A DNA stretch of 64,000 nt, from the NCBI GenBank assembly GCA_020848545.1, contig JADLHZ010000104.1, positions 72,306 to 136,305 on the forward strand. The letters are read 5' to 3'. The notes under the pieces are model-generated. The model was not told where the DNA came from and did not search any database. It worked only from the letters and a program-made list of their open reading frames with translations. This document shows positions 19,596-22,233 of the stretch, in pieces. The DNA comes from Deltaproteobacteria bacterium. GTDB lineage: Bacteria > Myxococcota > JADLHZ01. Numbering within the stretch: the stretch's first letter is position 1; each line of letters opens with the position of its first letter. Position numbers and translations under genes: made by a program.

Positions 19596-20303
19596 CTAGA
19601 TCAGCTTCTTTCCCATGAGGACTTTTTCGATGACCGCCATCTGCGTCTCGATGCGCGCGTCGATGGTACCCGCTTCCGTCTCGATGACCATGGAGCCGGC
19701 GGTGAGCGCGTCGTCGGAGCGGATCTCGATCTCCTTGGCGCGCCCGAGCTGATCGATGAGCTCGCGCTTGGCCTCGCGCAGGTGCTCGAGGTCGGTCGGG
19801 CACACGCGCAAGTACACCTCGCGGCGCTGGCGAATCGACTGCAGGTGCTTCTTCGCCATGTCGACGATCGCTTCCGGGTTGAACTCGAGCTCCTTGCCGA
19901 TGATCTTCTTGGCGATCGCCAGCGAGAGCTGACGAATCTGGCCGGCGACTTCGTTCTCTTTCGCCTCCATTTTGACGGAGTGCGTGGCGATGATCTCGGT
20001 GTACTTCGACGCGGCTTCGTCGGCGCCCTCTTTGAAGCCTTGGTCATGCGCGGTGGCCTTCATTTGATCGGCTTCCGCTTGCGCCGCGGTCGTGATCGCC
20101 TGCGCCTTCGCCTCGGCCTCGGCGACGATCTGCTGCGCCTTCGCCTGCGCGTCGGCGACGATCTTGCGCGCGTCGCTCTGCGCGTCGAACTCTTCCTTGC
20201 TGACGATGGCCGCTTTCTTGCGCGGCATGTCGGAAAAGCTCCCCTCGTCGAGCGACGCCGCGTCGCCACCGCCGCCCGTGCCTTTGATGATCTTGCCTGC
20301 CAT
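19596..20303 (-). CDS. FliH/SctL-like ATPase regulator
   Basis: 235 aa from an internal ATG; Ala/Gln/Glu-rich coiled coil (AQAKAQQIVAEAEAKAQAIT) followed by a small globular C-terminal domain; directly upstream of the ATPase. Confidence 0.7.
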   Translation of the reverse strand: MAGKIIKGTGGGGDAASLDEGSFSDMPRKKAAIVSKEEFDAQSDARKIVADAQAKAQQIVAEAEAKAQAITTAAQAEADQMKATAHDQGFKEGADEAASKYTEIIATHSVKMEAKENEVAGQIRQLSLAIAKKIIGKELEFNPEAIVDMAKKHLQSIRQRREVYLRVCPTDLEHLREAKRELIDQLGRAKEIEIRSDDALTAGSMVIETEAGTIDARIETQMAVIEKVLMGKKLI

Positions 20304-21322
20304 TACGAAGCCGCCTCTGGTTGATGGAAGACGAATTGAAACTCGAGATAGCGCGCTGAAATCGTGTTGCTCTTGGCCATCCCCTGGATGCTGCGCAACA
20401 CGCCGTCCTGGAGCCGCTTCGCTCGCTCTTCGTCCGTCTCCGACATTTCCTGCACTTTGAGGATATAGCTTTCGAGCAGGTTGCCCACGTTTTTCGGCAG
20501 GCGCTGGTAGAACGCGCGCAGGAACTCCGGCGACTCGAGCGTCAGCGCCTTCGACAGCCGGTAGAGGCCCGCCTTTCGCGAGAGCTCCTCGGTGTCCGTG
20601 AAGTTGACGAGGACGCGGCCCAAGAAGCGCTGGGCGCTCTTCAGCTCCATCGCGTCCTGACTCTGCGTGCGCTTGACCGCCGCGATGAGCTCCGAGGCGT
20701 AGTCGCGCGGCAGCCGCTTGCACAGCTCGGCGAGCGCATAGCGGCCGACCGACACGAACGCCTGCGCCAGCTCTTCGAGCCCCAAGTTTCTCAGCAAGAG
20801 CTGCAGCTCGGGCGGCTCCAAGATGATCACGTTCTTGAACACGAACGACTTGTCGATGTGCAGCGGCATCGGCGCGAAGCGCTCTTCGAACTTCAAGCGC
20901 ACGTTCTTGACGATCTGCGGCAGAAGGGTCTTCACCTCGTCCTTCGGCGGCAGGCGCTTTCGGATGTCGGAGGGCAGCTTGTCGACGACCGGCTTCAGCT
21001 GGTGGGGTGGCAGCCCGATCAAGATCGCGGCGACGACGCGCGGCGCTTCGCTCGACAACGCTTGCACGATCCAAGACGAATCGACGGCCTCGAGGCCGCG
21101 CGCGCTCGGCTCGCCGATGAGCTTCTTCAGCTCGTGGGCGATGAACAGCGCGCGCTTCTCGCTCGGGATCTGTTGCACGAGGCCGGCCTTCTCCTTGATC
21201 GCGGCGATGTTCGGGTCGTCGAGCAAGTCGAGCAGGTCGAGCTCCTGCGAGCCGCCGTTCGTCAGCAAGGTGAGCAGCAACGAGACGTACTTACGCTCGA
21301 GCGGTTGGAACAGCCGATGCAC
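20303..21322 (-). CDS. FliG-like rotor/switch protein
   Basis: 339 aa; middle segment EAPRVVAAILIGLPPHQLKPVVDKLPSDIRKRL fits the FliG pattern (EHPQ..ALIL..L.P.QAA.VL..LP.E); C-terminal F.F...L....LQ.LLR block; GTG start; stop overlaps the FliH-like start. Confidence 0.6.
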   Translation of the reverse strand: MHRLFQPLERKYVSLLLTLLTNGGSQELDLLDLLDDPNIAAIKEKAGLVQQIPSEKRALFIAHELKKLIGEPSARGLEAVDSSWIVQALSSEAPRVVAAILIGLPPHQLKPVVDKLPSDIRKRLPPKDEVKTLLPQIVKNVRLKFEERFAPMPLHIDKSFVFKNVIILEPPELQLLLRNLGLEELAQAFVSVGRYALAELCKRLPRDYASELIAAVKRTQSQDAMELKSAQRFLGRVLVNFTDTEELSRKAGLYRLSKALTLESPEFLRAFYQRLPKNVGNLLESYILKVQEMSETDEERAKRLQDGVLRSIQGMAKSNTISARYLEFQFVFHQPEAAS

Positions 21323-21381
21323 ACGACCATACTAGGCGGGTCGGGTCCCTGCCGCAAATGTCCCGGCAAATGAGCAGAGGA

Positions 21382-22233
21382 TTACGAGGGAGGAGGTTCG
21401 GCAGGCGGGGGAGCAGGGCGGCTCATGGCCTTCGTCGGCGTCGGGCCGCTCGTCTTCTTCAAGAGCGCGATGAGGAAGATGAGCGTCATGATGACGATGA
21501 ACGCCACGATGCCGATCATCATGCCGCGGAACTTGCCGACCTCGTTCTTCGGCAGCGTGAAGATCATGATCTTCTCGAAGCCGCCCGCCGGACCCTCGCC
21601 GATGGTCTCAGCCGGCGCGAGCACCGTGGTCGCGATGACCTTGACGTGCTCGGGCTTCAGCTTCTCGACCGAGTTCGCGACGAGCTCAGCGACCTCTTGA
21701 TCGGTCAGCGGCTTTGGCGATTTCTTGTCGCGCGTCGCGTACTTATACCAAACCGACGCGGTCGCCATCGCTTTGTCTTCTTCTTTGACGCGCAATACGG
21801 AGTCTTCTGGAATGACGATGTGCACGCGCGCGTCGAGCACGCCGTCGATCGACTTCAGCGTGCGCGCGAGATCGCCTTGGATGCCGTTCAGCCACTTCGC
21901 CTTTTCTTCCGAAGCGGTGGGGACGAGGCCGCCGGCGGCGAAGACTTCCGTGAGGCCCATGTCTTTCCTGCGCGGCAGGTTGTTCGCCGTGAGGATCTTC
22001 CAGGCGCGATTGGCTTCGTTACCGGGCACCGTGATCATGAAGCGCACGCCCTTGTTGCCGCTGCCGGCGACGTCGGGCGTTTTCTGAGCGCCGATCGGCG
22101 GATCCGCCGAGTCGAGCAAGACCACGATCTCGTTGGCTTCGCGCTCCTCGAGCTCGTGGACGATCTCGGTTCTGCCGCAAGCGACGGTGAGGAAGAGCAC
22201 CGACGCGATCACACTCGGGCGAAGCATTGGCAT
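21382..22233 (-). CDS. SctJ-family (YscJ/PrgK/EscJ-like) inner-membrane ring lipoprotein, in the FliF position
   Basis: Lipobox LTVACG followed by LEEREANEIVVLL, the SctJ N-terminal hallmark; single C-terminal TM helix (MMIGIVAFIVIMTLIFLIALL); ~283 aa, far shorter than FliF. ORF begins at TTG 22242; ATG at 22233 or 22227 is more likely. Confidence 0.7.
   Translation of the reverse strand: MPMLRPSVIASVLFLTVACGRTEIVHELEEREANEIVVLLDSADPPIGAQKTPDVAGSGNKGVRFMITVPGNEANRAWKILTANNLPRRKDMGLTEVFAAGGLVPTASEEKAKWLNGIQGDLARTLKSIDGVLDARVHIVIPEDSVLRVKEEDKAMATASVWYKYATRDKKSPKPLTDQEVAELVANSVEKLKPEHVKVIATTVLAPAETIGEGPAGGFEKIMIFTLPKNEVGKFRGMMIGIVAFIVIMTLIFLIALLKKTSGPTPTKAMSRPAPPPAEPPPS

Follow-up and report, generated by a model that had tools for sequence, protein, structure and literature searches.

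We analyzed a 64-kb stretch of DNA (the window) on contig JADLHZ010000104.1 from a Deltaproteobacteria bacterium of the Myxococcota, and found that a cluster of nonflagellar type III secretion system (T3SS) genes in it carries a homolog of the flagellar protein FliG. The gene lies between those for an SctJ-type ring lipoprotein and an SctL-like ATPase tether, in the position held by sctK in injectisome operons. Judged by its sequence, the 339-aa product is a genuine FliG homolog over the N, M, and C domains. We consider it reasonably likely that this protein is a diverged, nonrotary FliG and an adaptor predicted to connect the SctJ ring of a nonflagellar T3SS with its cytoplasmic sorting platform, which is the task of SctK in injectisomes and of FliG in flagella. 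A sequence-only reading of the window had previously pointed out a FliG-like rotor protein paired with an SctJ-sized lipoprotein. This observation is confirmed and its interpretation is partly supported, in that the FliG and the short SctJ are both real, while a rotor role and a FliF-like tail are not supported. Three points go beyond that reading: the location in the SctK slot, a predicted model that appears to resemble SctK, and a sizeable family of such proteins in uncultured bacteria.

A conserved pair of genes for a FliG homolog and an SctJ-type lipoprotein

Both open reading frames (ORFs) were found on the minus strand at the places indicated by the sequence-only reading, with the FliG-like gene directly after the lipobox-bearing SctJ-like gene. 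The features of the FliG-like gene are as follows.

20303..21322, minus strand: FliG homolog, 339 aa, in the position held by sctK in injectisome operons
21098..21322, minus strand: FliG_N-like domain, residues 1-75
20861..21091, minus strand: FliG_M-like domain, residues 78-154, with an EHPQR-type motif (E92, P94, R95, K127)
20603..20854, minus strand: FliG_C alpha1-5-like domain, residues 157-240, with an MFXF-like F160-x-F162 and a torque-helix equivalent at 205-218
20306..20593, minus strand: family-specific C-terminal extension, residues 244-339, without counterpart in FliG alignments (from an AlphaFold2 model and conservation)

The features of the ring protein gene are as follows.

21382..22242, minus strand: SctJ-type lipoprotein of the inner-membrane ring, 286 aa or, if read from the ATG at 22233, 283 aa, with lipobox TVAC and Cys22, and a YscJ_FliF domain at residues 27-205
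21460..21516, minus strand: single C-terminal transmembrane (TM) helix of SctJ, residues 243-261 (hydropathy scan, Kyte-Doolittle value 3.19)
21385..21459, minus strand: cytoplasmic tail of SctJ, residues 262-286, KKTSGPTPTKAMSRPAPPPAEPPPS, proline-rich

The FliG-like ORF has a GTG start and a third-position GC content (GC3) of 0.90, and the SctJ-like ORF has a GC3 of 0.84 when read from its TTG start. True reading frames in this window of about 65% GC have GC3 values of 0.8-0.9. The length of 283 aa first given for the ring protein fits the ATG at 22233, which was also the end coordinate given; the product read from the TTG has 286 aa. The two genes are separated by 60 nt, and the stop codon of the FliG-like gene overlaps the start codon of the downstream FliH-like gene (TAATG).

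For comparison, we examined 38 related loci from metagenomes and metagenome-assembled genomes (MAGs), with flanks of +/-10 kb. They are labeled Myxococcota, “Deltaproteobacteria,” or “Bdellovibrionales,” with one MAG labeled Pseudomonadota, and no cultured isolate is represented. Both genes were mapped in 25 distinct loci, 24 of which have an SctJ homolog 4-156 nt upstream of the FliG-like gene. The exception is L007, for which no gap was recorded by our script and the coordinates give a separation of about 11 nt. Because the adjacency of the two genes is kept in 24 of the 25 loci, it is not due to chance.

The 339-aa protein belongs to a large family of FliG homologs

The 339-aa protein matches the Pfam model FliG_C (29.7 bits versus a gathering score of 23.3; E = 8e-7), and weaker matches to FliG_M and MgtE_N are also present. 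Its individual domains have the FliG fold, and a profile of the family matches FliG in a search of the Protein Data Bank (PDB) (E = 2e-10). To represent the family, we aligned 42 members reaching down to 37% identity, and all column counts given below refer to this alignment. Both FliG_M and FliG_C are recognized by Pfam in 42/42 of these sequences and FliG_N in 25/42. The suggestion that the protein could be an unrelated ARM/HEAT protein was examined and can be discarded, given these matches to FliG domain models throughout the alignment and the PDB profile match to FliG.

The family is sizeable. A word-indexed search yielded 49 clusters of 36-99% identity, all about 320-400 aa long, and an exhaustive profile search yielded 131 representative clusters at E < 1e-30 and 313 at E < 1e-10. 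Nearly all of these proteins are annotated as unnamed or hypothetical, and a few carry an automatic FliG label. Members that are 450-760 aa long also exist (P0108, P0125, P0131, P0160, P0165, P0176, and P0180). In a long member from L036 (positions 7372-8745, 457 aa), the FliG-like part is followed by an extended C-terminal tail that is rich in Pro, Arg, and Ala and probably disordered.

The FliM-binding motif is largely kept and the torque features are lost

Residue correspondences were taken from hidden Markov model (HMM) alignments to the FliG proteins of Helicobacter pylori, Thermotoga maritima, and Aquifex, combined with column counts. Several properties are shared with flagellar FliG. 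The lengths are similar (339 versus about 331 aa), and the gene directly follows that of a ring protein and precedes fliH, as in the flagellar order fliF-fliG-fliH-fliI-fliJ-fliK. Furthermore, the putative FliM-binding EHPQR motif is largely kept. In the FliG_M counterpart (residues 78-154), E92 and P94 are invariant, R95 is present in 39/42 sequences, and a K or R at position 127, the equivalent of R160, is present in 42/42. The deviations are a variable residue at the His position and a Gln-to-Arg replacement.

In other respects, the family differs from flagellar FliG. The NCBIfam FliG equivalog gives no match to the 339-aa protein at E <= 0.01. The counterpart of FliG_C alpha1-5 (residues 156-243) opens with an MFXF-like F-x-F, but helix_MC and ARM_C have no counterpart, as about 45 residues between the aligned blocks in the T. 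maritima, H. pylori, and Aquifex proteins correspond to about 5 in the family. Likewise, the five charged torque-helix residues of FliG (K264, R281, D288, D289, and R297 in Escherichia coli numbering) are not conserved. The R281 equivalent (position 207) is an acidic residue in 29/42 sequences (E in 20, D in 9), the D288/D289 equivalents are Ala214 in 34/42 and Ala215 in 38/42, and the R297 equivalent (position 223) is not conserved. The face E211-L-I-A-A-V216 at the position of the torque helix is strongly conserved in the family. Thus, the protein is a FliG homolog without recognizable features for torque generation and for ARM_M/ARM_C ring polymerization. Calling it a rotor, as the sequence-only reading did, does not agree with the replacement of the torque-helix charges, and no stator genes are found within the window.

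The family also carries an additional conserved C-terminal extension of about 95 aa. Residues 244-339 hold some of its most conserved motifs, including the invariant K250, G252, R255, Q273, R274, and P276. When residues 155-339 were modeled alone with AlphaFold2, the FliG_C part and the extension were predicted to pack into one compact domain (predicted local distance difference test score 94.8; predicted template modeling score 0.89). All 29 invariant columns of the 42-sequence alignment are, by definition, present in the window protein.

The partner is a short SctJ lipoprotein rather than FliF

A further difference from flagellar FliG is that the partner is an SctJ lipoprotein of about 290 aa and not a FliF of about 550 aa. 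The ring protein matches Pfam YscJ_FliF (E = 1e-24) and scores 137 bits with the NCBIfam SctJ model TIGR02544 (cutoff of 162, not reached) versus 41 bits with the FliF model. Its sequence matches in PDB include a FliF RBM fragment (7cik, E = 2.6e-14), MxiJ (6.6e-9), PrgK, and EscJ. The protein thus has a lipoprotein signal, a YscJ_FliF domain comprising RBM1-RBM2, a length within about 250-300 aa, and the optional C-terminal TM helix expected of SctJ.

The alternative that this gene is a longer FliF truncated by a frameshift can be set aside. Other reading frames at its 3' end conceal no helix or extension, and all 28 SctJ homologs that were extracted are short (270-393 aa) with one C-terminal TM helix. 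A lipobox is present in 26/28, the remaining two being L004 and L035, which have none under the chosen start codon. The ring protein is therefore genuinely short.

It had also been proposed that the short ring protein might retain a FliG-binding tail. We found no indication of this in the window, where the cytoplasmic tail of SctJ is a proline-rich segment of 25 aa that has no helix and does not resemble the FliF C-terminus. Most SctJ relatives instead have a cytoplasmic tail of 30-45 residues that starts with a conserved basic amphipathic helix, which reads RLRxVRGRLxRLQxEIAKARRK in compact loci and has KxKLxKAEAE..LKKAR-type forms where the pair stands apart from other T3SS genes. The C-terminal (FliF_C) helices of FliF are two in number and hydrophobic. 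The helix of the relatives is single and strongly basic, and so is likewise unlike FliF_C. Two elements of the docking between the FliF C-terminus and FliG_N (PDB 5tdy and 5wuj) nevertheless have parallels here, since a FliG_N-like domain is retained and most SctJ relatives carry this helix of about 22 residues right after the TM segment. The sub-lineage of the window (the window, L002, L036, and L038) has proline-rich tails instead, and there they coincide with a split of the T3SS locus.

The secretion cluster in the window

Pfam and NCBIfam scans define a minus-strand cluster that runs from 26344 to 16688. Its gene products, in order of transcription, are two needle-like paralogs, a chaperone, a 173-aa protein, a sigma factor, an SctI-like protein, SctJ, the FliG homolog, FliH/SctL, SctN, SctO, and a FliK-like protein. 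The 173-aa protein, located between the chaperone and the sigma factor, is of unknown function. The features other than the SctJ-FliG pair are as follows.

25571..26344, minus strand: needle-like candidate A, 257 aa, paralog of candidate B
24975..25508, minus strand: needle-like candidate B, 177 aa, Gly-rich at the N-terminus and conserved at the C-terminus, which ends in SNIMKTKHDTVKNSISNVR
24420..24863, minus strand: TPR class-II (LcrH/SycD-like) chaperone, 147 aa (Pfam TPR; NCBIfam LcrH_SycD, E = 3.9e-10, below the cutoff)
22970..23749, minus strand: FliA/WhiG-type sigma factor, 259 aa (NCBIfam TIGR02479, 164.6 bits, cutoff of 189.6 not reached; Pfam sigma70 r2 and r4)
22328..22834, minus strand: SctI-like candidate for the inner rod, 168 aa, encoded immediately upstream of sctJ (from position and relatives)
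19596..20303, minus strand: FliH/SctL-like ATPase tether, 235 aa (Pfam FliH, E = 5.5e-22; T3SS_SCTL, E = 7e-6)
18183..19592, minus strand: T3SS ATPase SctN, 469 aa (NCBIfam SctN equivalog; Pfam T3SS_ATPase_C)
17614..18114, minus strand: SctO/FliJ-like stalk protein, 166 aa (Pfam YscO-like, E = 7e-20)
16688..17617, minus strand: FliK/SctP-like length-control protein, 309 aa from MSDRVEE (Pfam Flg_hook, 32.3 bits versus a cutoff of 29.8)

The ATPase is of the SctN type, as it passes the cutoff of TIGR02546 (606 versus 604.75 bits) while the FliI models remain under their cutoffs. The SctI-like protein of the window has no Pfam match, and its positional homologs give sub-threshold matches to PF17001, T3SS_basalb_I (best E = 4.4e-5), and share the C-terminus ...ELTSKV.EKATSGIKQ..NTQ. 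The needle-like candidates A and B stand in tandem, with long Gly/Ala/Ser/Gln-rich N-terminal parts and an identical C-terminal portion of about 60 aa, and their homologs are found at the head of related T3SS loci. Neither has a Pfam or PDB match, and we presume from the C-terminal motif that they are candidates for needle (SctF)-type subunits. Searches of PDB sequences with the needle-like and SctI-like proteins returned low-complexity noise only. The sigma factor occupies the same cluster position in nearly all related loci, and thus a flagellar-style regulator is kept in a nonflagellar system.

All ORFs of the cluster are intact, with genome-typical GC3 values of 0.82-0.90. Neither the window nor the related loci examined contained MotA/B-like genes, and no rod, hook, or filament genes are present alongside the family protein. 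A promoter and terminator scan of positions 16000-27600 gave nothing above shuffled sequences, and scanning the window for Rfam families and tRNAs produced no matches.

Several other genes in the window deserve mention. A 140-aa protein without family match (26436-26858, minus strand) is kept at the cluster head in L002 (64% identity) and L010 (30%). Directly upstream of the cluster is an NlpC/P60-CHAP-like protein of 204 aa (26872-27486; sub-threshold matches), and an SLT-domain transglycosylase gene (10664-11638) lies 5 kb past its far end. Either of these proteins could help with the cell-wall remodeling that machine assembly involves. Two sigma-54 enhancer-binding proteins (31620-33437 and 55207-56526, minus strand), one with a GAF and one with an FHA input, are encoded near the cluster together with several Ser/Thr kinases, a pattern typical of Myxococcota. 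Finally, a DUF222 and HNH endonuclease gene (41793-43091, minus strand), where the GC skew goes negative (42-44 kb), may belong to a mobile or selfish element.

Related loci range from compact secretion clusters to lone gene pairs

A synteny map built with tblastn revealed compact loci (L004, L010, L013, L031, and the P0061 contig) with the order needle-like protein, chaperone, sigma factor, SctI-like protein, SctJ, FliG homolog, FliH/SctL, SctN, SctO, FliK-like protein, SctQ, FliO, FliP, FliQ, FliR, and FlhB. In L004, L013, L031, and the P0061 contig, the SctQ (FliM/N-type), FliO, FliP, FliQ, FliR, and FlhB homologs are directly downstream. The SctQ of these four is a bona fide FliM-domain protein with GGXG, and a FliO homolog precedes FliP (positions 15168-17216 in L004). 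For L004, SctQ passes the Pfam models FliM (47.6 versus 27 bits) and FliMN_C, and FliO also passes its model. One LLGGxG motif each is present in the SctQ proteins of L004, L013, and L031. The GGXG motif of FliM is the partner of EHPQR in FliG, and a FliM-domain SctQ and FliO usually count as traits specific to flagella. The flanks of the related loci showed no SctV, and neither the secretin SctC nor the outer ring protein SctD was found in the window or in these flanks.

The system mixes injectisome traits (the SctJ lipoprotein, SctN, the SctI-like protein, and an LcrH-like chaperone) with flagellar traits (FliG, FliM-type SctQ, FliO, a FliK-like Flg_hook domain, and a FliA-like sigma factor).

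In the sub-lineage comprising the window, L002, L038, L036, and the P0003 contig, the cluster is broken up by unrelated genes and ends after the FliK-like gene. A second group (for example, L001, L003, L005, and L035) has the SctJ-FliG pair as the only such genes within the flanks, in housekeeping surroundings. For example, L035 (6769-10751) has the order rpsB-tsf-SctJ-FliG-mltA, with a FliH-like gene 4.5 kb downstream beside uppS-cdsA, and in L001 (5932-11071) the pair comes directly after MlaE-MlaF-MlaD (511 aa). Three of the orphan-pair loci (L015, L020, and L021) nevertheless have SctN/SctO or FliH at a distance of 8-10 kb. Compact T3SS loci (L004 and the P0061 contig) adjoin priA-def-fmt, and several orphan pairs (L003 and L035) have fmt and an N6/N4 methyltransferase nearby. 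This shared neighborhood suggests that orphan pairs are remnants of a full locus at the same chromosomal site.

In the third and most divergent group (L027-L029), the upstream gene encodes not SctJ but a conserved 489-aa membrane protein that combines TM segments with a zinc ribbon of the TFIIB type (L027, 8465-9934); gyrB is on the other side in L027.

A probable nonrotary adaptor between ring and sorting platform

We favor the adaptor function because the gene takes the SctK position, the FliM-contact motif is largely kept, relatives encode an SctQ with a FliM domain and the GGXG motif, the stator-contact charges and ARM_C are absent, the gene is coupled to one for a genuine SctJ, and the family is large (131 representative clusters at E < 1e-30). 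The protein would be a static adaptor under the SctJ ring that links ring to platform and does not rotate. Its FliG_M domain would bind the FliM-like domain of SctQ through an EHPQR/GGXG-type interface, and the N domain or the new C-terminal domain would anchor the protein under the SctJ ring or contact its neighbors. In most relatives, the ring anchor would be the basic helix that they conserve behind the TM segment of SctJ. In this way, the protein would recruit the SctQ-SctL-SctN platform, with SctL-SctN held under the export gate.

Several points weigh against this proposal. The contacts of the protein with SctJ, SctQ, and SctL are predicted. No genes for SctQ, SctR/S/T/U/V, SctD, or a secretin were identified by Pfam and NCBIfam scans in the 64-kb window, and so the would-be partner of the EHPQR-like motif is not seen there. 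Moreover, the SctJ tail of the window is without the helix conserved in most relatives, and therefore a ring contact that operates across the family may fail in the window protein. For these reasons, with neither SctQ nor the export gate visible in the window and its SctJ tail unlike that of most relatives, the adaptor model is less secure for this genome than for the compact loci. Finally, because some members are far from any T3SS gene (L001, L003, L005, and L035), and because the zinc-ribbon-partnered subgroup has no SctJ gene upstream, the FliG-like protein may have a T3SS-independent role.

Relation to SctK

The annotated pCD1 record has the gene orders lcrO(sctI)-yscJ-yscK-yscL and yscN-O-P-Q-R-S-T-U. 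The window and the related loci have a pCD1-like order in which the FliG-like gene, flanked by sctJ and sctL, fills the yscK slot. SctK has no known relatives, and a FliG-like role for it has been hypothesized since 2014. The family thus shares with the injectisome SctK proteins (YscK, PscK, OrgA, and MxiK) the slot between sctJ and sctL and a proposed job as the link from the inner-membrane ring to SctQ.

The two families differ in length (339 versus about 210 aa) and have no significant sequence or profile similarity. None of the 42 family members matches a Pfam SctK family (YscK, OrgA_MxiK, HrpB4, or LEE-associated) at E <= 1, and hhalign comparisons with YscK/PscK alignments were not significant (E = 0.21 and 0.11). 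In addition, the docking site of SctK is the FHA domain of SctD, a protein that is seen neither in the window nor in the compact loci.

The family may nonetheless be a surviving intermediate between FliG and SctK, with SctK a shortened, strongly diverged FliG that corresponds to roughly the late M domain, the C domain, and part of the extension. The identical gene slot and the FliG-like role long proposed for SctK are consistent with such a bridge, as is the best hhalign result, obtained against 17 YscK/PscK sequences. This alignment is collinear over 99 columns, places family residues 164-279 onto YscK 66-174, and brings the motifs that are best conserved in each family into register (KAGLYRLAKA..FVRQ..QRFP with YscK AGLQFWLAA..WARRL.LRLP). 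However, it is not significant (E = 0.11, probability of 0.5%), and the SctK profile is limited to the Ysc/Psc family. The Pfam comparison above also speaks against the relationship, and where models are compared, one of the two is a prediction. We therefore treat the bridge as a hypothesis, and one that we hold at somewhat short of an even chance. With a little more reserve, we suggest that the clade preserves a T3SS that branched before injectisomes lost FliG, with the FliG-like protein as a direct ancestor-like form of SctK. The basal placement of the clade in this proposal is inferred from gene content only.

Other possible roles for the FliG homolog

An alternative to the adaptor role is that, in part of the family, SctJ and FliG form a self-standing module of a membrane ring and a cytoplasmic ring that operates outside of secretion. 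In favor of this, lone pairs exist in housekeeping contexts (L035, L001 beside MlaE/F/D, L003, and L005), and the SctJ-FliG adjacency survives where linkage to other T3SS genes is lost. But the view of these pairs extends to +/-10 kb only, and the presence of SctN/SctO or FliH 8-10 kb away in L015, L020, and L021 and of a FliH-like gene 4.5 kb away in L035 indicates that the T3SS may simply be dispersed. The pair in the window, moreover, is embedded among T3SS genes. We consider such an independent scaffold unlikely.

Somewhat less likely still is that the cluster of the window lineage is a decaying remnant in which the FliG-like gene no longer has a function. In relatives of the window (L002, L038, and the P0003 contig), the locus is split by interposed, unrelated genes. 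Moreover, SctQ/R/S/T/U/V genes are absent from the 64 kb, and the tail of SctJ no longer has its helix. Decay is difficult to reconcile, however, with intact ORFs of genome-typical GC3 throughout the cluster, with the presence of all 29 invariant columns in the window protein, with an SctN that is 84% identical between the window and L002, or with the stop/start codon overlap that is still kept.

A torque-bearing rotor driven by some further stator, for example a TolQR/ExbBD/AglRQS-type motor as is common in Myxococcota, is very improbable: homology over FliG N, M, and C is complete and the conserved E211-V216 face suggests that some partner binds there, but no MotA-contacting charged residue is conserved, ARM_C, which is needed for FliG ring polymerization, has no counterpart, and MotA/B-like, rod, hook, and filament genes are lacking as described above.

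Comparison with other nonflagellar systems of Myxococcota

Under the adaptor reading, the system would be a T3SS that uses an adaptor of the FliG type. Abby and Rocha (2012; PMC3459982) reported that myxobacterial nonflagellar T3SSs are without FliG, SctF, and secretin. For the T3SS* of Myxococcus xanthus (PMC10433427), SctD, SctJ, SctI, SctQ, SctRSTUV, SctN, SctL, and LcrH-like chaperones are listed, and FliG is not. The system described here resembles these in being a nonflagellar T3SS of Myxococcota with no secretin seen, in having SctJ, SctL, SctN, SctI, and LcrH-like chaperones, and in inviting discussion as an intermediate between flagellum and injectisome. It differs in that the known systems are reported to be without FliG and SctF and have SctD in their long locus, whereas the present clade has FliG, a FliM-domain SctQ, FliO, a FliA-like sigma factor, and needle-like candidates. 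The family matches include no cultured myxobacterium, and full-text literature searches returned no paper describing a FliG homolog in an SctJ-based system.

Implications

The standard view is that nonflagellar T3SSs have no FliG. A conserved FliG homolog in the SctK slot of an SctJ system suggests, in concrete and testable form, how the injectisome sorting platform could have arisen from the flagellar C-ring. It also represents a natural experiment on what becomes of FliG when it no longer generates torque but still couples ring to platform, and on a FliG_N domain that faces a ring protein without a FliF-type C-terminus. On a practical level, profiles for T3SS detection in which FliG serves as a marker of flagella would overlook such systems or assign them wrongly.

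If the bridge to SctK is true, the “novel fold” adaptor of all injectisomes would be a truncated FliG, and each part of the injectisome sorting platform would have its homolog in the flagellar C-ring (FliG/SctK, FliM-N/SctQ, and FliH/SctL). The orphan SctJ-FliG pairs and the zinc-ribbon-partnered FliG-like genes would then be further exaptations of a ring-plus-adaptor module.

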